Below, piece by piece: positions 12,546-31,011 of a DNA stretch of 31,011 nucleotides. Every line of letters begins with the position of its first letter. Within the stretch, counting starts at the first letter, position 1. The translations under genes were made by a program, and so were the position numbers. The notes under the pieces were generated by a model. The model did no database searches. It worked only from the letters and a program-made list of their open reading frames with translations, and was not told the DNA's origin. Source of the DNA: a virus (taxonomy: Duplodnaviria; Caudoviricetes); the IMG/VR virus record IMGVR_UViG_3300022923_001986, positions 1 through 31,011 of that record; one strand, given 5' to 3'.

Positions 12546-12991
12546 AAAACGGCATATGTAAAATAGAGTTAATTGAAGATTTAGTTTTATTTACAAAAGA
12601 AATGTATGTTAAAATTGGCAAGCATACTCATTTCGGATGTGAATTGAACGTGTCTTCTTTTAACTCTTATTTTTCCAACCCGCAAAGATTTAAAGATTGT
12701 TTTTGTTTTGGATACTTTATTAACGGCGAATTAGTTAGTTATATAGTATGGATGAAAACTTATGACGCTAGAGTTAATAAAAAAATTATACAAGAATATA
12801 TGTGGGTATCTGACCCCAACACAAAAGGTTATGGCATTAAATTATTTAAAAAAAGTTTAGAATATATAAAAAATATATATAAATTTGATATAGTTTTAGT
12901 AGGAAATAGCGAGAAAAACTCTAAGTTAGAAAAATTCTACATAAGAAATGGTTTTAAACTAGAGAGCAAAGCGTTTTACAAAGTTAATTAA
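12518..12991 (+). CDS. GNAT-family acetyltransferase
   Basis: WVSDPNTKGYGIKLF (motif A) and NSKLEKFYIRNGFK (motif B). Start codon uncertain. Confidence 0.7.
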   Translation: MSETAKVDLKNGICKIELIEDLVLFTKEMYVKIGKHTHFGCELNVSSFNSYFSNPQRFKDCFCFGYFINGELVSYIVWMKTYDARVNKKIIQEYMWVSDPNTKGYGIKLFKKSLEYIKNIYKFDIVLVGNSEKNSKLEKFYIRNGFKLESKAFYKVN

Positions 12992-12993
12992 AA

Positions 12994-15900
12994 TTAACCT
13001 ATAAGAAAAGCTTCTCTTTGCCCATTTGCGTTTAACAGACAACTTATTTCAAATTCGGTTAAATCAGAATTCTCTGGAAATTGTAACTTGTTAGCGTTTA
13101 CTTGGTTAAGTTCGCTACTTGAAGTTCTCATTGGTATAGAACTCTCTACACTAACAATACCATTAGTTCTTATCATAAATTCAGCTCTCCAATCTAAAGG
13201 TATATCATTCACTATATATATATTAACAGGATCAGCAAATATACTAACAGGTTCATCTGATTGTGCATATGCAAGATCTAATGCGTTAGATCTTTCAATG
13301 GTAGTTTGGCCCGATCCTGTAATAGTTAAACTAGTAGGAAATCCATAAAACATTTGAGCGGCGACTGATTGTGAAACCTGGCCAGTTTTGATATAATCTT
13401 TTGGCAAGGCTTTGTAATATATAAAGTCCGTGTTTTCAAGTCCTGGTACAACCTCTATATCTTCAGCTAATACAGACACTTGTAAAACTTCACCCACCCC
13501 AGTAACTGAGACATCATTTGTTGCGACTAAATTGGTACTCTCCAAATAATCAACCGAGAAATCTGGTGTTTCTCCAGTGTATATAGCTACTTGTTTTATG
13601 TTTATAGCTCCACTGCCACCCAAATCAGCTTCAAGATCAATTTCAAAAAGAACTTGCTTTTCAACTATATCAAAATCAACTATATATTGTAGACCTGAGC
13701 CAGTTGGTGCGTAAATTGAATTAGCTCCGAAACTTCTTATATCGCTGATTCCATAATCAGGGAACGTCACGGAAAAAGAAGCTTCCCCACTACTAAATTC
13801 TGGACTAAAACCACCCACGAAAAAATCAAGTTTATAGCCTTCTGTTAGTGGGTGAGAACCTATACTTACTTCATCTAACCTGTTTACGCTACCAGATGTA
13901 CCTATTTGTAAAAAATTAAAATCAACGTTTGTCCCTGTGTAATTCCTAACATCTCGATTAATACTGCCAATTACATCGATATCGCCGTCTAATATGTTAT
14001 TAGAAGAATCAATCAAATTTGGAAATTCTTTAAAACCTATAACAAATTCAGCTTCAGGATTGCCTGAGAGATCTGAAAAACCTCCATCTGCAGAATTGTA
14101 ATAATTATTCTCTACTTTTTCCTTAATTATCGCTGCATACTTACCCATACGCCCTTGGTGAAGAGGTCCTACTCCAAATAAACTGGTTGGTTCGTTTAAT
14201 AATTGACAGACATTGGTTGGGTGATTTAAAGATCTAGGGAGATATGGATATAAACCTGAAAAATCTGGTTCAGTACTCTCTGAAGATGTCCCTGGGTATT
14301 TCTCCCAAATATAATTTGGCTGGTGTTCATCCCAGGGGTATGTCGGATACCCTTGCAAGAGCCAACCTGTTTTATAATAAGATGGGCTACTAGGATCATC
14401 ATCCGTCAATACCCAAGAATATCTAGTGTTAGTAGGTTGGTAACTTACTTTTACTTTTAAACCAGTCGTGGTTAAATTTTCAAAAACATTAGTTTTACCG
14501 ACAGAGGCATATGTATCAGCCTTATAATATCCACTATAATATCCATCAAAAGTATTTAAATTTCTTGGCGCTTGGATAGAGTAATAGTCTATATCGGGCG
14601 TACCAAATGTAGCGTCCTCCAGATACCAAGAATCACTGCTCTGCCAAGGGTATGGCCAATAAAATGAAGCAATAAAACCTGTTTTATTGTAAGATGGGCT
14701 ACCTGGATCTCTATCTACCATTGTCCACCGATTCAAATTCCCAGATACGTTTTGGCTAAATTCAAACCTGAAACCGCTGAAATTTACGTTTTCATATATT
14801 CCGCCAAGGCCACCCGCAGTGACAAACCCTGTATAATCTCCACTCAAAGCGTTCGTATTACCAAAAGTATTAAACGCATCACCTATACCTGATAAATAAA
14901 AACCAGTGACATCATCATTATTATAATACCCACTCAACGCTACACCAACACCAGTCAAGTAAAACCCTGTTACGACTTCACCATCTCTGAGGTCTGATAT
15001 ATCTACGCTGATATTTTCCACGCCATTCAAATAAGTAGTCATTACCGCTTGCTCTCTATCCATAGAAACCTGAAGCATTTTTGGAGTTTCATCGTTTAGC
15101 GTTGTCTCCCCCGTAATAGCTAAATACTTAAAAGTTTCGTTGATGAAACTAATATAATTTTTTCCGTCACCAGACTGAAACCAAGAAAACTTACCAGGGA
15201 AGTTTATAAGAGACTGTTTATCCTCAAGATCCGATTGAAATGTACCCCAAGTTAACATAGAGAAATTACCAGTGCCTACTTCAGCTTCAAATTGAATTCT
15301 ATCACTGTTAAAATCGTCTGCTACACTTAACCCAGCTATATCGTCTAATCCAGTTTGTAAAGCATTTTGCCTTACAGTGTTTTTTGTGCCATGCCTTTCT
15401 ACAGTAAAAAATATATCATCATATCCGACATAGTCTTCAACTCTTTGGCACAAAACAGAATAATCGTTATAATCAAATCTATAAGATGGTCCACCGTAAC
15501 CGTTTAAAATTGGGGTACTATCAAATAATACATTATCATCTTGGATGGTATTGTAATTGATGCTTTTGACACCTGGATAGCTAGAAGACAAAACATTAAA
15601 AGTTTCTTCCGCTGCTGCTATGTAAGCTAATATACCAGTTCCACTAGCTATCTCTAAATCAGCTTGGAAAGCTTTATAGAAAAACCCACTTGTACTAATT
15701 CCAGTTATGCATGTTTCAGAAAATAAATCTTCTATATCTTGGTCAGGTTCTTGGGACTGCAAAAATACAATAGGGGGAGCGTCAAAATATTCTACAAATT
15801 CGACAAATTTATAATCATCTTGATAAGAATTTGTTACGTAATTAATTTCTATTCTTTTTAGCGCATTTTCAAGAAGAAATATGCCTGTTTTGGAAGCTAT

Positions 15901-23028: not shown

Positions 23029-23721
23029 ATGGCGGACAAAAAAATATCAGAACTTACGGAACTAACTTCAGCTGACTCAGTAACTGACCTCTTACCTGTT
23101 GTAGATACCAGCGCAGATGAGACCAAAAAGATTAGATTTAGTAATTTGCCACTGAGTGATTCGGCTAAAAACTCTGTGTATACGTATACTACAGACTTTC
23201 ACGGTGCTGTGGAGCAAACACGGAATATTACTGCTCCGTTGATTTACAATCAGTATTACGGCGATGACACTACTTTAACTAGTATCTATATTGGGAGCAA
23301 TGTTCCCAGCATTGGCGTATCCGCATTCATTGGTTGCGATGCCCTGGCGGATGTAACCATCGCTAACGGTATCACAAGTATCGGTCAAAATGCATTTCGG
23401 CTCTGCTTTGCTATCCAAAGTATCAATATTCCAGACAGCGTTACCAGCATCGGGCTTAGCGCACTTCAAAACTGCAATGCCCTGAACAGCTTAACCATTC
23501 CCAGCAGTGTGACTAGTATTGGGGATAACGCTTTTCGTAGTTGCGTTAACTTAGCGACAATTAACTGCAATGTAGATTTTTCTATTATAAATGGCCTAGA
23601 TAATGTTTTCACTAACACACAGTCCCCTCTTACTATAAACGTACCAGCTGGACTGGGTTGGACAGCTGGATCTGGCCAAACAATTGGCGGAAACACAAAC
23701 GTAACCGTTAATATAATTTAA
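23029..23721 (+). CDS. BspA/LRR_5 leucine-rich repeat protein 1 (4 repeats)
   Basis: MADKKISELTELTSA N-terminal module followed by IPxSVTSIGxxAFxxCxxL repeats. Confidence 0.9.
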   Translation: MADKKISELTELTSADSVTDLLPVVDTSADETKKIRFSNLPLSDSAKNSVYTYTTDFHGAVEQTRNITAPLIYNQYYGDDTTLTSIYIGSNVPSIGVSAFIGCDALADVTIANGITSIGQNAFRLCFAIQSINIPDSVTSIGLSALQNCNALNSLTIPSSVTSIGDNAFRSCVNLATINCNVDFSIINGLDNVFTNTQSPLTINVPAGLGWTAGSGQTIGGNTNVTVNII

Positions 23722-23733
23722 TCTTCAAAAATC

Positions 23734-25404
23734 ATGGCAGACAAAAAGATATCAGAACTCACAGAACTAACTTCAGCAGACTCGGCAGTAGATTTTTTAC
23801 CAGTTGTAGACTCCAGCGAAAGTAAAACTAAAAAAATTAAATTAGCCAACTTTCCGCTTAGTGATGCCTCTAAAGATACCGCATACCCATACACGATAGA
23901 TATTCAGGCTGGCGTGGAGCAAACTCGGAATCTTGCAACTATTAGTAATTCAGATGGGTTCTACAATACAAATCAACCAGATAGTATTTATATTGGGACT
24001 AATGTAACCAGCATTGGGTCTGCCGCGTTTAGCAACAGCAATTTTGCAGGGGTTAATTTAGCAAATCAGAGCGTCACGATTCCCGACAGCGTCACCACCA
24101 TCGGGAGTTATGCATTCTATTACTCTGCGCTAACGAGTGTCAGGCTTCCAAATAATCCTGCGTTTACCTCGATTGAGCGAGATACATTCGGCGGTTGCGA
24201 ATCTCTTACAAGTGTCGTCATTCCCGATAGCGTCACCAGTATCGGGGATCAGGCATTCCGATACTGCATTAGCCTGACGAGCATCACCATTCCCGACAGC
24301 GTCAACAGCATCGGGAGTAGCGCATTCTATCAATGCTCTGATCTCGCGAGTGCTACCCTCCCAAATAATGTTGGCTTCACCAGAGTCGAAAATTTCTTAT
24401 TCCAGAACTGCACTAGCCTGGCGAGCATCACCATTCCCGACAGCGTCACCAGCATCGGGGATAGCGTATTCCAAGGCTGCAGCAGCCTGATAAGCATCTC
24501 CATTCCCGACAGCGTCACCAGCATGGGGTATTATTTGTTTAATAGCTGTGCTGTAACGAGCATTACCATCCCCTACGGACTCACCAGTATCCAGTTTGCT
24601 GTATTCGCTTACGCAGCAGCCCTAGAAAACGTAACTTTCTCAAATAACCCTAATTTCATCGGAATTGGACAAGAGGCATTCGTTGGTTGCACCAGCCTGA
24701 GGAGCATCACTATCCCCAACAGCGTCACCAGCATCGGGAATGAATCATTCGCTTACTCTGGCCTGACGAGCGTCACCATCCCCAACAGTGTTTCCACTGT
24801 CGGGATTGGTGTATTCTCACAATGTGCTGATCTCGCGAGTGCTACCCTCCCAAATAATGTTGGCTTCACCAGAGTCGAAAATTACTTATTCTATAACTGC
24901 ACTAACCTGGAGAGCGTCAACATTCCCGACAGCGTCACCTACATCGGGATTAGCGCATTCCAAGACTGCGACTTGACGAGCATCACCATCCCAGACAGCG
25001 TTTCCACCATCAAACAAAGAGCATTCCAAGGCTGTGACGGGGTAGAAAGTCTCACCCTCCCAACCAATGCTGGCTTTACTACCATTGAGCAATTCACATT
25101 CGCTGAACTTAGGGCTTTACTGAGTTTAACCATACCCAATACCGTAACGACTATAGGTCTTAAAGCATTCCGCAACCTCAATGTTTTGACAACTGTTGAA
25201 ATTCCCAGCAGTGTCTCCAGCATAGGACAGGAAGCCTTTCAGGCTTGTACACTACTAGGGACAATCAACTGCCTAGCTACAACTGCTCCTGCCTTGGGTT
25301 CTAATCCGTTTTCTGGTGTAGCGGCTACAGAGATTCACGTTCCAGCAGGAGCAATAGGATACGGAACTACATATGGAGGTTTGACGGTCGTCTCCGATTT
25401 ATAG
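23734..25404 (+). CDS. BspA/LRR_5 leucine-rich repeat protein 2 (about 18 repeats)
   Basis: Same N-terminal module; 22-25-aa repeats; C-cap TINCLATTAPALG...IHVP.GA...TYGGLTV. Confidence 0.92.
   Translation: MADKKISELTELTSADSAVDFLPVVDSSESKTKKIKLANFPLSDASKDTAYPYTIDIQAGVEQTRNLATISNSDGFYNTNQPDSIYIGTNVTSIGSAAFSNSNFAGVNLANQSVTIPDSVTTIGSYAFYYSALTSVRLPNNPAFTSIERDTFGGCESLTSVVIPDSVTSIGDQAFRYCISLTSITIPDSVNSIGSSAFYQCSDLASATLPNNVGFTRVENFLFQNCTSLASITIPDSVTSIGDSVFQGCSSLISISIPDSVTSMGYYLFNSCAVTSITIPYGLTSIQFAVFAYAAALENVTFSNNPNFIGIGQEAFVGCTSLRSITIPNSVTSIGNESFAYSGLTSVTIPNSVSTVGIGVFSQCADLASATLPNNVGFTRVENYLFYNCTNLESVNIPDSVTYIGISAFQDCDLTSITIPDSVSTIKQRAFQGCDGVESLTLPTNAGFTTIEQFTFAELRALLSLTIPNTVTTIGLKAFRNLNVLTTVEIPSSVSSIGQEAFQACTLLGTINCLATTAPALGSNPFSGVAATEIHVPAGAIGYGTTYGGLTVVSDL
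24338..24883 (+). repeat. Exact 57-bp direct repeat (24338-24394 and 24827-24883)
   Basis: ctgatctcgcgagtgctaccctcccaaataatgttggcttcaccagagtcgaaaatt occurs twice, 489 bp apart. Confidence 0.95.
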
Positions 25405-25437
25405 TTGACTGTTAATATAATTTAATCTTTAAAAATC

Positions 25438-26034
25438 ATGGCAGACAAAAAAATATCACAACTAACAGAATTAACTTCAGCTGATCCAGCAATCGATGTG
25501 CTACCAATAGTAGACAGCGATTTAAATCAGACCAAAAAGATTAAGTTGGCAGATCTTCCTCTGAGTGATGCGGAAAAGGGATCTCTTGTGCCATTCACTA
25601 CGGATATTCAGGCTGGCGTGGATCAAACTAGAAATCTTACAACTATTACTAATTTAGATGGTTATGATGGTAACACGACATTAAATAGCGTCTACATTGG
25701 AAGTAATGTCACCAGTATCGGGTCTTATGCATTTCAAAGCTGCAGCAGCCTGACGAGCATCACCATCGGCAACAGCGTCACCAGCATCGGGTCTGGCGCA
25801 TTCTATCAATGCACTAGCCTGACGAGCGTCACCATTCCCAACAGTGTCACCAGCATCGGGAATTACGCATTCGAGGGCTGCACCAGCCTGGCTACAATCA
25901 ACTGCCTAGCTACAACCGCTCCTGCCTTGGGTTCTAATGCGTTTTCTGGTGTAGCGGCTTCAACAATTCACGTTCCAGTAGGAGCAACTTACCCAGCTAC
26001 ATATGGAGGTTTGACAGTTTTCTTCGATTTATAG
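25438..26034 (+). CDS. BspA/LRR_5 leucine-rich repeat protein 3 (3 repeats)
   Basis: Same N-terminal module and nearly the same C-cap as protein 2. Confidence 0.92.
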   Translation: MADKKISQLTELTSADPAIDVLPIVDSDLNQTKKIKLADLPLSDAEKGSLVPFTTDIQAGVDQTRNLTTITNLDGYDGNTTLNSVYIGSNVTSIGSYAFQSCSSLTSITIGNSVTSIGSGAFYQCTSLTSVTIPNSVTSIGNYAFEGCTSLATINCLATTAPALGSNAFSGVAASTIHVPVGATYPATYGGLTVFFDL

Positions 26035-26869: not shown

Positions 26870-27444
26870 AAAACGCCCTAATTAACACCGAAACAAGACG
26901 AATCATCGAAGTGCAAGAAGATTCATATGAAGATGGTTATTATGATGTCAACTACCAAGAAGTAGTGCAAATCTCTAATGCAAAAGCTGCAACTTTTGAG
27001 GCTTCAGACGAACCACTTTTTCTGATTAACAATAATATTGTCACTTTTCAAGAAAAGATAGAGATCGAACGACTAGAGCGACGGGAAGAAAGATTTACTG
27101 AATATCCTGATATGTTTAAATCTAGAAAGTTTGCAGAGATTAAAAGAGCTAGAGATGCGGAATATAACTCTATTCTCACGACTAGTGATGGTTTTCAATT
27201 TAAAGCCGACCTAGAAACCATCATCGACACAAAAACAATTATCGAAATCCTGCCAGACGGCGGCTCTTTCCCAGATTATAAAAACGCCGATGGTTCGTAC
27301 AATACAATTTCAAAGGCTCAGTTTCAAACAGCAATTTCGGAAGGTATTCAAAGAAAGTCGGCAGCATTTTCTCGTGAAAAAGAACTTAACGAAGCAATCG
27401 CTAACGCCACTACTTTCGCAGAATTAAGTGCTATTATTTGGTAA
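26866..27444 (+). CDS. DUF4376-like tail-fibre-associated protein
   Basis: EIKRARD...DGFQFKAD...YKNADGS...AF.REKEL...I.NA.T..EL.AI.W C-terminus. Confidence 0.75.
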   Translation: MKNALINTETRRIIEVQEDSYEDGYYDVNYQEVVQISNAKAATFEASDEPLFLINNNIVTFQEKIEIERLERREERFTEYPDMFKSRKFAEIKRARDAEYNSILTTSDGFQFKADLETIIDTKTIIEILPDGGSFPDYKNADGSYNTISKAQFQTAISEGIQRKSAAFSREKELNEAIANATTFAELSAIIW

Positions 27445-27689
27445 TGAGAATAACTATAAAAGCTGACCCCTCAAAATCGAGAGGTAAGTCTTACTATTGG
27501 AATTTAGCCGAGGCTGTGTCGCAAGGACTAGCCTCGGTTTTTGGCTTAAATGCTAATCTAACTTTTTCTGCCTACTGTGGCTACTGGCAACAATTAAATT
27601 TACCAGTAAGAGGAAAATTTTATAAATTTATTAATTTTTTATTTAGAGATAAAAAGCATTGTGAAAATGCTTGGAAGAATTTAACTTGA
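27444..27689 (+). CDS. Small conserved phage protein of the type found after tail-fibre genes
   Basis: TFSAYCG...FINFLF.DKKHC.NAW pattern; ATG overlaps the upstream stop. Confidence 0.65.
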   Translation: MRITIKADPSKSRGKSYYWNLAEAVSQGLASVFGLNANLTFSAYCGYWQQLNLPVRGKFYKFINFLFRDKKHCENAWKNLT

Positions 27690-27713
27690 CAACGTTGTTT
27701 TGTGTGCTATAAT
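27686..27713 (+). promoter_or_regulatory. Strong sigma70-type promoter, leaderless
   Basis: TTGACA-16 nt-TATAAT with extended TGn, 7 nt before ATG 27721. Confidence 0.75.
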
Positions 27714-27720
27714 TAAGCAT

Positions 27721-27912
27721 ATGAATACTACATGGACTGACCAACAACGCGGCGCTTTCTGGAAGAAAGACGGAAAAAATGGCAAGTATCTCGCGGGATA
27801 CGTTGTTATTGATGGCAAGAAGATGCCAGTAACCGTCTTCCCGAATAAGTACAAATCCAAAGATAACCAACCAGAGTTTATCATCTACGAGACTTTTGGA
27901 CAAAATGGATAA
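27721..27912 (+). CDS. DUF736-like small beta protein (possible ssDNA binder)
   Basis: GAFWKK.GK.GKYLAG.V......VFPN..K...QPEFII pattern. Confidence 0.6.
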   Translation: MNTTWTDQQRGAFWKKDGKNGKYLAGYVVIDGKKMPVTVFPNKYKSKDNQPEFIIYETFGQNG

Positions 27913-28132
27913 AAATCTTCAATCAACCTACTGCATGCTTGATTCGTTCGTGCAATCTGGCGAAATAACAGATTTGCGCAAAACTTATTTTGAGAAGATA
28001 GCTCTTCCAGCAATGCGGGAAGTTAATCCAGAGTGGAAGCCCAAAACAATACAAGAGGCTTATTTAATTTTAAAAAATTATCTTAATAAAGAAAAAAGCA
28101 CCAAACCAAACTTTTTTGTTGACATTGATTAA
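27905..28132 (+). CDS. Hypothetical protein
   Basis: 75-aa ORF overlapping the previous stop region. Confidence 0.65.
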   Translation: MDKNLQSTYCMLDSFVQSGEITDLRKTYFEKIALPAMREVNPEWKPKTIQEAYLILKNYLNKEKSTKPNFFVDID

Positions 28133-28146
28133 ATTTTAGGCATTAT
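28119..28146 (+). promoter_or_regulatory. sigma70-type promoter, leaderless
   Basis: TTGACA-16 nt-CATTAT, 7 nt before ATG 28154. Confidence 0.55.
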
Positions 28147-28153
28147 ATGTTGT

Positions 28154-28318
28154 ATGTCTAAAAAAATAAAACCAGGTGCTGATTTAAGAGCGCCGAATGC
28201 AACAAAGAGAAAACTCATGGGACGCTCAAGCGGCGCACTTGTCCACAACGATCATGTCGGTCATTTGGTAACTCCAAAGATTGACAAGGCTATCAAAAAA
28301 AATCTGGATAAGAAATGA
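28154..28318 (+). CDS. Small basic protein, 54 aa (not in the ORF track)
   Basis: MSKKIKPGADLRAPNATKRKLMGRSSG...LDKK*, at the same promoter spacing as other genes. Confidence 0.65.
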   Translation: MSKKIKPGADLRAPNATKRKLMGRSSGALVHNDHVGHLVTPKIDKAIKKNLDKK

Positions 28319-28337
28319 CTGTAAATATAAAACAATT

Positions 28338-28598
28338 ATGATGAGATATAACGAGGTAGAATTTAGACCAGCAACCGTGGACAGGGAAGCCGAGATTGTT
28401 GCTTGGATTTACAATAAAGAATTAGATAAGGAAGCTTGTATCACTCTCTGTTGGATCAAGGAAGATCACGAAGGTTACTATATGAAAACTGTCGGGAATC
28501 GATATGTTGAGTATGACGATATGGAAGCATTGAATCACGTTGCTAAGTATGCAATGAGGTCTTTGAATGTACAATTTGAATTTAAGGAAAGATTATGA
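28338..28598 (+). CDS. Hypothetical protein
   Basis: aattATG start; tiles with its neighbours. Confidence 0.7.
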   Translation: MMRYNEVEFRPATVDREAEIVAWIYNKELDKEACITLCWIKEDHEGYYMKTVGNRYVEYDDMEALNHVAKYAMRSLNVQFEFKERL

Positions 28599-28696
28599 GT
28601 GAAGTAATATATATAATCACCGCAGCAGTTTCAGTTGCTGCATTCTGTAGATTTGTGTGGTGGGTAGTTAATGTTAATCCAGAGAAGAAGAAATAA
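28595..28696 (+). CDS. 33-aa single-TM peptide
   Basis: MSEVIYIITAAVSVAAFCRFVWWVVNVNPEKKK*; ATGA overlap with the upstream stop. Confidence 0.55.
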   Translation: MSEVIYIITAAVSVAAFCRFVWWVVNVNPEKKK

Positions 28697-28698
28697 TT

Positions 28699-28854
28699 AT
28701 GAAAGAAGCACTAAAACTAATCCTTGAAGCAATGGTGTATCGTATTCAACGACAGAAAGCATCTGAAGAAAAGTCTATTGATTCATTTGTATCTCATACT
28801 AAAGCAAAGAAAATCGCACGTGAGCGAATGATTAAAGCAATCGAAGAACTATAA
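28699..28854 (+). CDS. 51-aa hypothetical protein
   Basis: MKEALKLILEAMVYRIQRQK...IEEL*; tiles the gap exactly. Confidence 0.6.
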   Translation: MKEALKLILEAMVYRIQRQKASEEKSIDSFVSHTKAKKIARERMIKAIEEL

Positions 28855-28979
28855 TGAAAAAATCATTCAACGAACGAAAGAACGACAACGGACCACTTCA
28901 GCTACACGAAAAGGTGATCATTAGCTCATTTTCACTATGCATTTTTGTATGCCTCTGTATCTGGTTGAGTTGTCTATAA
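28854..28979 (+). CDS. 41-aa peptide with C-terminal TM segment
   Basis: MKKSFNERK...VIISSFSLCIFVCLCIWLSCL*; TAATG coupling. Confidence 0.55.
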   Translation: MKKSFNERKNDNGPLQLHEKVIISSFSLCIFVCLCIWLSCL

Positions 28980-28982
28980 ATT

Positions 28983-29528
28983 ATGAAAATTACAATAGAG
29001 CATTACGAAGAAATATTTACCTACGAAAGTACCCACGATTCAATGGGTCTGCCAGAACTAACTGATAAGTTTTACGGTCTGTGCATTGCCGCTGGGTATC
29101 ATCCAGATACTGTAGGCGAGTGCTTCTTTGAAAAAGGTCGAGAAATGACAGAGCATCTTTATCCAAATGATAAAGCCGAAGTTAATTTTGATTCTGCTGA
29201 AGATGTAGTGTCTTCGGGTGTCTCTGATCCAATTCAAGGCAGTTGGGCTGGATGGCCATATGTTGTAGTTAAAAGCCGATACAATGAGGATCGAAAATTC
29301 ACTATCATATCTAAGAATTGCGTTGAGTATTCTTTTAAAGATGATGGTCATGTTGGATGTTCTCGAAATGATGATGGGAGTCTAGAGTCAGTTGACCCAA
29401 GTGGTGGACCATATATTTGCTTAGGCACAAATCTCGGTGAAGTTCATAAGGAGTTAGAAGGCTTAACTGTCACGAAGATCAAACGTGATGATTCGAAAAC
29501 AGGGACTTACTATCTCACAGTAAAGTAA
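28983..29528 (+). CDS. Hypothetical protein, apparently two domains
   Basis: 181 aa; GYHPDTV in the N-terminal part, KSRY...VDPSGGPYI in the C-terminal part. Confidence 0.75.
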   Translation: MKITIEHYEEIFTYESTHDSMGLPELTDKFYGLCIAAGYHPDTVGECFFEKGREMTEHLYPNDKAEVNFDSAEDVVSSGVSDPIQGSWAGWPYVVVKSRYNEDRKFTIISKNCVEYSFKDDGHVGCSRNDDGSLESVDPSGGPYICLGTNLGEVHKELEGLTVTKIKRDDSKTGTYYLTVK

Positions 29529-29720
29529 TTCTAAATCTAGCCTTCCAGATGGATAAAAACAATAAGGATTGGGAGAACTCGGTCGAGGCACGCCAACAGA
29601 GCGCGGGAGGGATGCAGGCTACAACGTCCACTTACTCTGAGCAAAAAACCCGCACAATTTTAACTAACGGAAAAGCTATATTATGAACGAATACAAAGAA
29701 AAAATTATGAAATATATATC

Positions 29721-29807
29721 AGAGAACGTGGAGGATAGCCATGCGAAATAAAGACTCAAGCTCAACGCCAGCGCGTAACTCGCATTGGCTAGTCCGTCTG
29801 GTTATCT
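29721..29807 (-). other. attC-like integron recombination site (87 bp)
   Basis: Minus strand: R'' AGATAAC, 5-nt spacer, GGA[C]TAGCCA[A]TGCGA, 33-nt loop, TCGCATGGCTATCC, 5-nt spacer, R' GTTCTCT. 14-bp stem with two extrahelical bases. Confidence 0.8.
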
Positions 29808-29962
29808 ATCTTCTTCCCAAATGGGAGATACGCGAAGAGATGATGTGCGATCAGAAATACTGGATGATTTACCGAGTTTCTTTTCTTGGGTCGTATTTCT
29901 TTGAAAGGTGGAATACCTCCGAAACCGCAGAGATACGAATGCGCGAACTTCAATCAAGATAA
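29727..29962 (-). mobile_element. Integron-type gene cassette, 236 bp
   Basis: The far end (minus strand GTTATCT, 29957-29963) is the exact complement of the cassette's own R'' AGATAAC, and removal restores a reading frame. Confidence 0.75.
29741..29962 (+). CDS. Cassette-borne hypothetical protein, 73 aa
   Basis: ATG lies inside the attC stem and is preceded by GGAGG (29730-29734); the stop TAA lies within the boundary AGATAAC. Confidence 0.65.
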   Translation: MRNKDSSSTPARNSHWLVRLVIYLLPKWEIREEMMCDQKYWMIYRVSFLGSYFFERWNTSETAEIRMRELQSR

Positions 29963-30084
29963 CATTAAACCCTTAGCACTTATCGCGATATGCGGTTGCG
30001 TTGGATACTTTTTAGGTAGTCCCATGACTGGAATGGTAGTTGGAATTACTATCGTAGCAGCTGCTACACTATTACTATAAAATT

Positions 30085-30192
30085 ATGTCACGCTCATGGA
30101 TAGTAAAAAAGGTCGAATGGTGGAAACATCTGAAGTGGCGCAAACGTGACCAGAGCAAAAAAGAGCGCACACAGTCGAAAAAAGATATATAA
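30085..30192 (+). CDS. 35-aa basic Trp-rich peptide
   Basis: MSRSWIVKKVEWWKHLKWRKRDQSKKERTQSKKDI*; aattATG start. Confidence 0.6.
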   Translation: MSRSWIVKKVEWWKHLKWRKRDQSKKERTQSKKDI

Positions 30193-30200
30193 AAACAATT

Positions 30201-30467
30201 ATGAAAGTAAAAATCAAAGCAGAACTAGACGACGAAGCATTTAAGACTGGAGACTTTATTCAGGAATTGGGTAAGATTCAAGACGAGTATTTGGATAAGC
30301 TTGTAGCTAAAGTCAAAAAAGAGAAATGGATCGAAGGTATGGATGATGAAGAAATTCGTGATTGGCTATTTGATTACTGTTTTAATGGTTGGAATAATGA
30401 TAAAGACGGATTCGAAGATACATTCACGGAGTGTATCGATAAGTGTTCGAAATACGAAGTAGAGTAA
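30201..30467 (+). CDS. Acidic hypothetical protein
   Basis: 88-aa ORF, aattATG start, WLFDYCFN. Confidence 0.75.
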   Translation: MKVKIKAELDDEAFKTGDFIQELGKIQDEYLDKLVAKVKKEKWIEGMDDEEIRDWLFDYCFNGWNNDKDGFEDTFTECIDKCSKYEVE

Positions 30468-30482
30468 ATATCAAAAATTCGC

Positions 30483-30511
30483 TTGACAATTTTAAAAATT
30501 GCAAATAAAGT
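30483..30511 (+). promoter_or_regulatory. sigma70-type promoter
   Basis: TTGACA-17 nt-TAAAGT in the intergenic region before ATG 30521. Confidence 0.5.
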
Positions 30512-30520
30512 ATATAAATT

Positions 30521-30781
30521 ATGAAAAAAGTAAAAATAGTAAAACCCGCAGAATTAACATATCAGAAAACTGTTCACACTTTAGATGTAGAGGTTGATGG
30601 TGTAGTGTATAGGGCTTACAGAGTGGAAGATTGTAATGCCGCTGACACCGAGTTTGACGAGCGCGATAATGTTCCTCTCGAAATACAGCAAGTTATCAAC
30701 GCTTTGTTTTGGAATGATGAATATACGATGACTGACATCGTGGGCGGAGAAGTATTTGAAGTCGATCCAGATGAGTATTAA
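30521..30781 (+). CDS. Acidic hypothetical protein
   Basis: 86-aa ORF. Confidence 0.75.
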   Translation: MKKVKIVKPAELTYQKTVHTLDVEVDGVVYRAYRVEDCNAADTEFDERDNVPLEIQQVINALFWNDEYTMTDIVGGEVFEVDPDEY

Positions 30782-30935
30782 ATTTAAACATTTTGTTGGG
30801 GCGAACAACATCCTAATTAAATTTGAAGATGGACGCGTTAAGCTGTTGCCCAAAGAATACATCTCTGTGTACAACCAAATAAATCAATCACAAATAAAAG
30901 AAAAACATATTAAAAATTTTTTAAATAATAAATAA
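30771..30935 (+). CDS. 54-aa hypothetical protein
   Basis: MSIKFKHFVGANNILIKFEDGRVKLLPK...NNK*; fills the gap between neighbours. Confidence 0.55.
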   Translation: MSIKFKHFVGANNILIKFEDGRVKLLPKEYISVYNQINQSQIKEKHIKNFLNNK

Positions 30936-30940
30936 AAAAA

Positions 30941-31011
30941 ATGAAAAGAAAATTCAAAATTGTAGCTGCTGGTTATGGCGGCGAGTTTGCACTCTGCACT
31001 AAAGACGCAGA
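30941..31011 (+). CDS. Hypothetical protein, 3'-truncated by window edge
   Basis: MKRKFKIVAAGYGGEFALCTKDA..., open to the end of the window. Confidence 0.55.
   Translation, partial: MKRKFKIVAAGYGGEFALCTKDA

Follow-up and report, generated by a model that had tools for sequence, protein, structure and literature searches.

A bottom-strand integron-type cassette in a small membrane-protein gene of a tailed phage

Introduction

A short reading frame near the right end of a phage genome fragment raises the question of what has cut it in two. The fragment (IMG/VR record IMGVR_UViG_3300022923_001986, positions 1 to 31,011) was analysed over its whole length of 31,011 nt and is called the window here. 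The frame opens at 29683 and stops after 22 codons when an insert of 236 nt is present. AAC triplets lie at 29725–29727 and 29961–29963, and the right flank (29964–30080) is an open hydrophobic frame of 38 codons. In the original prediction, removal of the insert was taken to restore a native membrane protein of 53 amino acids, and the insert to be a knockout or a reversible switch. The nature of the insert, its mode of arrival and its permanence are considered here by comparing filled and empty forms of the locus.

The window covers part of the genome of a large tailed phage. PHROGs assignments include DNA polymerase III subunits, a Clp-type ATPase, and tail assembly and central fibre genes, the scan for PHROGs families and recombinases covering 36 of the 96 ORFs. 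The record of a relative, 105.8 kb long, is rated 62% complete. From 27.7 kb onward, small genes on the + strand form an array that is highly mosaic among related phages. The locus sits inside this array, and the contig ends 1.2 kb downstream of it. A candidate sigma-70 promoter with a perfect consensus (12/12 match with TG) is found at the head of the array (27686–27713, + strand); sigma-70 sites in total number 11 against 10.6 expected by chance, and the weight falls on this single site. The predicted promoter would drive transcription of the array through the insert. No Rfam match at E ≤ 1 was obtained across 27400–31011, and a distant blastn search of annotated phages returned four short matches, all due to chance.

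Results and Discussion

A conserved membrane-protein gene is interrupted at codon 7

A 16-nt probe from the right flank retrieved 16 viral loci, seven of which are the membrane gene; the other nine are chance matches in unrelated genes. With a 23-nt probe, 19 metagenome loci were found, 17 of them uninterrupted. Insertion into a real, conserved membrane-protein gene, as predicted, was borne out by this comparison, 24 of the 26 related loci (seven viral and 17 metagenomic) being uninterrupted at the exact insertion point. The two filled loci are the window's own contig (L032) and a near-identical strain (L034). The empty loci, some of which are one contig filed twice, collapse to nine distinct alleles in nine upstream contexts. 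Variant codons among the alleles are synonymous in 11 cases and non-synonymous in eight, where 24% synonymous is expected; this excess, together with the existence of nine alleles, indicates that the gene is real and under constraint.

The native protein has 45 residues rather than the 53 first proposed. In seven of eight protein homologues it starts at the second ATG (29707), the eighth having an unrelated leader, and none of the eight carries the eight-residue leader of the longer form. The extra eight codons (29683–29706, + strand) are a stub, the 5′ end of a neighbouring 69-aa gene fused in frame to the membrane gene through a lineage-specific 188-nt deletion. Positions 29501–29703 are 99% identical to L026, in which the 69-aa gene is intact. 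The distance between the ATG of this gene and that of the membrane gene is 212 nt in L026 versus 24 nt in the window. The 18-mer proposed as the mark of an uninterrupted junction is present in none of the 24 empty loci.

The 5′ part of the membrane gene, codons 1–7 left of the crossover (29707–29726, + strand), has the same 5′ end in the 24 empty loci and in the proteins P0001–P0008. The 3′ remnant, codons 8–45 (29963–30080, + strand), has no start, and its frame is still open. It differs from the closest empty allele (L021, L026, L028 and L036) by one mismatch in 117 nt. Knockout of the gene by the insert, which had also been predicted, agrees with this arrangement: the gene is cut off at codon 7 and its remnant is left without a start. 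In P0001, a 45-aa form, two helices are predicted (residues 2–24 and 27–44; mean pLDDT 82); an Atlas search with P0001 gave no match. A protease-like protein of 389 aa (P0078) was clustered with P0001 with no evident shared sequence, which looks like a clustering error.

The insert is a cassette with a single attC site

The comparison of empty and filled loci upheld the predicted limits of the insert at base resolution. A gene cassette of 236 bp would occupy 29727–29962 (+ strand) if cut at the integron crossover position, AA|C on the + strand and G|TT on the − strand (Bouvier 2009, PMC2727003). The earlier limits, 29728–29963, are equivalent and shifted by the shared C. The frame match offered in their support was indeed found, but it is weak evidence: of 162 pairs of 3-nt direct repeats in this region, 63 would leave the frame open as well. 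The AAC triplet had been regarded as a duplicated target. All 24 empty sites read AAT, and AAC is the recombination core.

An attC site is predicted from fold and box coordinates at 29721–29807. The + strand would be the recombining, bottom strand because both bulges lie on its 3′ arm. The R′ box (29721–29727) is followed by a 5-nt spacer (29728–29732), the L stem (29733–29745) and a variable loop. The 3′ arm comprises a stem (29781–29784), an extrahelical T at 29785, six base pairs, an extrahelical G at 29792 and three base pairs, and the site ends with a second 5-nt spacer (29796–29800) and the R″ box (29801–29807). AAC (29725–29727) and GTT (29801–29803) stand at the two ends within pairing R boxes, both spacers are unpaired, and the extrahelical G and T are on the R″–L″ arm. 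The AAC and GTT ends, the unpaired spacers, the G and T 7 nt apart, the G after AAC and the length of 87 nt, within the range 57–142, are all features described for attC sites (Bouvier 2009, PMC2727003). An architecture scanner found only one such site in the window (62 kb, both strands) and none in 10 shuffles, and a model of the attC family (R1, below) scores it at 56.7 bits. Judged by every structural feature tested, 29721–29807 is an integron attC site.

The cassette's own R′ box (29957–29963, + strand) pairs with R″ at 7/7 positions, and the R′ box now in place at only 6/7. Since R″ matches the far end of the cassette completely, an excised circle would close into a perfect attC, and the insert reads as a linearised circle; the chance of pairing at the four bases beyond AAC is 1 in 256. 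Other elements were considered and rejected. An insertion sequence or MITE does not fit a hairpin at one end only and an empty site without the triplet present at both ends. Group I and group II introns were set aside in view of the length of 236 nt, the attC fold and the protein-coding body. A cryptic attI at the target was also discarded, as two attI-like ends from bacterial arrays show no evident likeness to it.

The cassette gene lies on the bottom strand with a predicted start inside attC

A predicted ribosome-binding site, GGAGGA, and an ATG both lie in the L′ arm of attC (29730–29743, + strand), the ATG 16 nt downstream of the first A in AAC. Of the 22 phage sites left when L170 is excluded, sites retrieved with a pattern containing AGGA, 10 likewise have an ATG at +16. 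The cargo gene that starts here encodes 73 aa (29741–29962, + strand) and has its stop codon inside the cassette's own R′ box. Its product consists of about 22 residues coded by attC and a 48-residue domain predicted to form three strands and one helix (model pLDDT 85.6). One relative, P0010, is 72% identical over the cargo and has a different leader. A profile search gave 66 relatives at E ≤ 0.001. In 31 of the 53 aligned relatives, an alignment that left out P0009 and 12 long or partial matches, at most six residues precede the domain, which has its own start there.

The cargo gene is present at 14 viral loci, 11 of them distinct. At six it has no hairpin in front, and at five it stands behind attC-like hairpins of other families. 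R″ matches the cassette's own far end in all four of the other-family cargo cassettes checked. The domain is found behind at least three unrelated attC families (those of the window, of L210 and of the L211 type), always on the bottom strand. In L211, L214, L215 and L222, a homologue of the cargo lies around 1130–1370 in a short, AT-rich, attC-like cassette; R″ pairs 9/9 with the cassette's own far end in the three that were checked, and the neighbours differ in each phage.

No family was found for the cargo in Pfam or PHROGs, and fold searches of the pdb and viral libraries yielded nothing at E ≤ 0.001. The best Z score in a wide fold search was 6.2 and the best Atlas score 0.81. Escherichia coli YaiA (PDB 2kvt) has a topology like that of the cargo (Z 5.3, rmsd 2.4, 56 residues; Atlas feature score 0.79) at 5% identity. 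These scores lie within the range of common arrangements, and no function is carried over. The size, modelled fold and position of the cargo hint weakly at a small host-interacting early protein as its most likely role.

In a canonical cassette the top strand encodes the gene, which stops ahead of R″ or within it. The conserved gene of the window cassette is on the bottom strand; two top-strand frames of 51 and 54 aa, with TTG starts, lie opposite this gene with its 66 relatives. With thresholds chosen by the analyst (35 aa for the bottom strand, 80 aa for the top strand), phage sites carry a bottom-strand gene in 18 of 25 cases and a top-strand gene in one of 25. In Verrucomicrobiota integrons, a top-strand gene ends at R″ at 18 of 22 sites and a bottom-strand frame is found at two of 22. 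L170 was counted apart, two of its four sites having a top-strand gene of at least 80 aa. One long bottom-strand frame at a site of the Verrucomicrobiota genome G074 was set aside, as it lies opposite a top-strand gene.

The attC family occurs in Verrucomicrobiota integrons and in other phages

Model R1, built from 12 aligned sites, matches 10 of 151 genomes from the phylum to which G007 belongs; the G007 locus is titled Luteolibacter, a member of Verrucomicrobiota. Five of these 10 genomes hold 9–18 sites. In a planctomycete-centred sample the model matches one of 151 genomes. The IntI scan covered the five genomes with 9–18 sites; each encodes an IntI that scores above the TIGR02249 cut-off, and in four of them arrays adjoin intI. 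Integron genomes with the same attC family include G146, G149, G065 and G074, and the G146 sites have the first 12 nt from AAC in common with the window attC. A genome scan for the exact site returned 28 loci, all chance matches, and no genome match. The attC family by itself points to Verrucomicrobiota as the probable host, a group named among integron carriers (Cury 2016, PMC4889954).

The 12 aligned sites have 80.8% paired cells, and two-sided changes are seen in 12 of 18 pairs. Both results exceed all 500 shuffles (0/500) and all slid controls, the figures being biased in that members were chosen partly for pairing. A gapped pattern scan with the inner stem unspecified gave 48 loci and 32 distinct matches. 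The inner stem pairs at four or more of five positions in seven of the 32, two of these from the L001 record, compared with 0.6 in 2000 shuffles. Searches with exact-arm patterns returned three loci of which one was real (the L001 record), 10 loci of which one was a real family member, and 34 loci of which none but the L001 record passed the structure scan.

In L001, an unrelated phage, an attC 90% identical to that of the window stands in front of a different cargo. Four reversed attC sites lie there between terminase and portal genes (L001:1332–2247). The cassette behind the 90% identical site also appears as a stand-alone contig of 306 nt in run X11, as if its neighbours vary.

Other sites of this attC family were taken up by the same phage family as that of the window (L130, L133, L162/L168 and L170). 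L170, the record of L014, has four such sites at 12733–14036 with canonical top-strand genes (70–197 aa), immediately ahead of the same array of small genes. One of its cassettes has a GAT/ATC core, not GTT/AAC, on both matching boxes. The L170 sites resemble a segment captured from a host integron, and a single phage family would then hold both polarities. A sibling cassette with one cargo is found in two contexts of the phage family (L162:451–700/L168 and L133:1497–1560). The L162/L168 copy cuts short a gene of a repeat family at an AAC, which makes it a second case of insertion within a gene.

The cassette was probably inserted by a host integrase

The reading with the greatest weight, at a probability of roughly three in four, is that the attC cassette was inserted into codon 7 of the 45-aa gene, likely by a host IntI at a secondary G|TT site, and that the exchange is stable. 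A circular cassette would encounter phage DNA inside a Verrucomicrobiota cell that is infected and expresses IntI. The integrase would cleave the cassette at AA|C in its folded bottom strand and the double-stranded phage DNA at an R-box look-alike, and replication would resolve the product. The look-alike at the target is identical to the cassette's own R′ box at six of seven positions. The orientation that places the bottom strand on the phage message would be retained since the cargo is then expressed, the phage reading it from the ribosome site and start codon inside attC. The membrane gene would be dispensable, so that its knockout is tolerated. A block that includes this gene (29525–30196) is missing from other, co-occurring strains, salt-marsh ones among them: X6 joins 29524 to 30197, and X7 and X15 show much the same.

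The target would have been a synonymous AAC variant of codon 7. This codon is AAT in all 24 empty loci, whereas the filled site has C at both junctions; a 138-nt contig of run X11 from 29957, which resembles a T-type empty allele, was excluded from the counts. A crossover at AA|C keeps the base of the target at the right junction, and the target must therefore have read AAC if the cassette arrived by this route. AAC accounts for 44 of the 133 Asn codons in the window genes. The AAC allele, absent from the 24 empty loci (nine alleles), is plausible but assumed. The filled junctions imply G|TT, and the empty alleles all read A|TT (24/24) and hence are not GWT. Moreover, the target lacks the CRGM motif at +6 to +9 of the E. 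coli hotspots of Loot et al.

Copying of the cassette from the array of another phage by phage recombination, through the likeness of target and R box and with no integrase involved, would account for C at both junctions against T in all sampled empty alleles. The 6/7 likeness of the target to the R′ box and the heavily mosaic gene array would suit it as well, and illegitimate recombination at R-like motifs has been raised before (Qi et al. 2023, PMC9892861). Nevertheless, the insert is exactly one cassette with the canonical AA|C on both sides and no target loss beyond the T/C position. A single 6-nt target would have to serve microhomology exchange twice, and the other deletions of the region are not at AAC, which makes this route unlikely. 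That the insert was joined in by the assembler has a negligible probability. The filled state is limited to two of 26 loci, with the window's own contig among them, as a chimera might lead one to expect. This is contradicted by independent contigs that span both junctions in five runs, among them X15, from another study and year. Insertion of a circular cassette by a host IntI remains the preferred account.

The exchange is probably lasting rather than switched

Eight of 24 listed runs were examined, all as contigs, and an excised joint from 29727 to 29964 was seen in none. Contigs drop rare variants, and low-level excision could escape such data. In the salt-marsh runs X1, X3, X4 and X5, which are possibly one campaign and the source of the window, a single unbranched contig crosses both junctions in each; X6 and X7 cover one junction each. 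In the marine run X15 the filled allele has a depth of 47.8 and the end of the 69-aa gene upstream, and it carries three substitutions over 29703–30087, one of which matches P0009. That a second lineage has the filled allele beside a different neighbour upstream, and with substitutions of its own, indicates that the allele has been inherited for some time.

The toggling between cargo and membrane protein that was originally proposed runs counter to these observations. As a reversible switch, one phage lineage would alternate the two proteins by frequent excision and re-insertion. The attC in place still pairs at 6/7 in the R box, the reading frame would be regained by precise excision with a synonymous codon left behind, and the remnant is intact. 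A 24-clone assay showed notable excision in two clones, at the point of insertion or outside it (Loot et al., bioRxiv 10.1101/2022.09.11.507474), and a rare state could be missing from contigs. However, the AAC scar expected from precise excision is found at none of the 24 empty loci, and the excised joint is absent from all eight runs, with unbranched contigs in X1, X3, X4, X5 and X15. The filled allele was kept in two lineages with substitutions. The element of 236 bp encodes the cargo only, and no tyrosine recombinase was found among 36 window proteins or in 5 + 4 virus records (at most 62% complete). A circle once lost would have no targeting device for re-insertion at the same base, and a switch is highly improbable on these grounds. 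The knockout could also be leaky, a reading that is very unlikely: re-initiation at an ATT one base after the cargo stop would yield a product of 38 aa that keeps the two hydrophobic helices, and the cassette would then bring in a gene at no cost to the membrane gene. The remnant can still be read through, and the substitutions private to the lineage (29981 and 30023) are both synonymous, a weak hint of continued translation; about a quarter of random changes would be synonymous too. These two changes could also come from recombination with intact alleles, no strong ribosome site precedes the ATT, and other strains delete the gene entirely. ATT is a poor start codon. A lasting knockout with gain of the cargo, an accessory gene swap and not a switch, is the likely outcome. 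Excision of the cassette by a host integrase would still be mechanistically possible.

Relation to known cassette insertions

Insertion of single cassettes by IntI at GWT sites, with disruption of the gene, has been described in E. coli, where excision was notable in just two clones and sometimes imprecise (Loot et al., bioRxiv 10.1101/2022.09.11.507474). The SALIN formed there from attC × attG resembles the window locus: one cassette, a crossover at G|TT and a disrupted host gene. In both, expression would depend on a resident promoter, and excision would be possible but uncommon. The window likewise has a single attC in 31 kb and no integrase or attI nearby (36 of 96 ORFs scanned; contig end 1.2 kb downstream). 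The differences are several. Here the recipient is phage DNA from a natural population in which both empty and filled alleles occur, and the cargo is encoded on the bottom strand with its start codon within attC. None of the empty alleles sampled is a GWT site, and the target has no hotspot motif.

Phage-borne attC sites and CALINs share with the window the lack of a phage integrase and the small cargo genes (Qi et al. 2023, PMC9892861), and five of six phage attC sites tested in that study were recombined by IntI1. In what that report describes, the screen required at least two attC sites, the hosts are not Verrucomicrobiota and no empty site is mentioned; bottom-strand coding and a start inside attC do not appear in its main text. 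The chromosomal cassettes of Verrucomicrobiota (G146, G149, G065 and G074) have the same attC family and an R″ that matches their own R′. They differ in their top-strand gene (18/22) and the adjacent intI and array, the window cassette being reversed and alone inside a gene. intI, attI and Pc were not found beside the window cassette in the incomplete phage records, which separates it from a complete integron. A literature search in which subscription journals were thinly covered turned up no report of phage cassettes that are coded on the bottom strand and have their start inside attC.

Phage-borne attC sites and insertion of single cassettes at secondary sites have each been published. The locus combines the two in a natural population, where empty and filled alleles can be compared base by base. 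The comparison shows that a reversed phage cassette travels as one unit, and it places the cut. The AAT and AAC forms of the target offer a one-base contrast for integrase targeting.

A more far-reaching reading, which is possible but has the odds against it, is that phages run a mirror-image cassette system on host integrases and make new cassettes from ordinary phage genes. An attC would land just inside the start of a phage gene and take over its ribosome site and start codon. It would later be excised with the gene at a downstream AAC, and the window locus would represent the last step, insertion at a naked site. The cargo could be such a product because its domain is free-standing in six of 11 distinct viral contexts and stands behind at least three unrelated attC families, that of the window included. 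If this were so, integron cassettes would have one of their birthplaces in phages. The origin of cassettes has been called largely unknown (Loot 2017, PMC5371416), and a cargo family found both free and behind several attC families gives a handle on one route of cassette genesis.

Other features of the window

Upstream of the membrane gene, a GC-richer accessory segment (29530–29672) with a 45-codon ORF is common only to L026 and L036. A contig of run X11 enters this segment at 29593, coming from an attC-like 3′ arm. The segment may be the remnant of another cassette. At 23029–26034, beside the tail genes, three adjacent BspA-type leucine-rich-repeat genes share a common 5′ segment of 208 nt, and two sulfotransferase-like genes flank them. 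This module is likely receptor-binding or surface-modifying.
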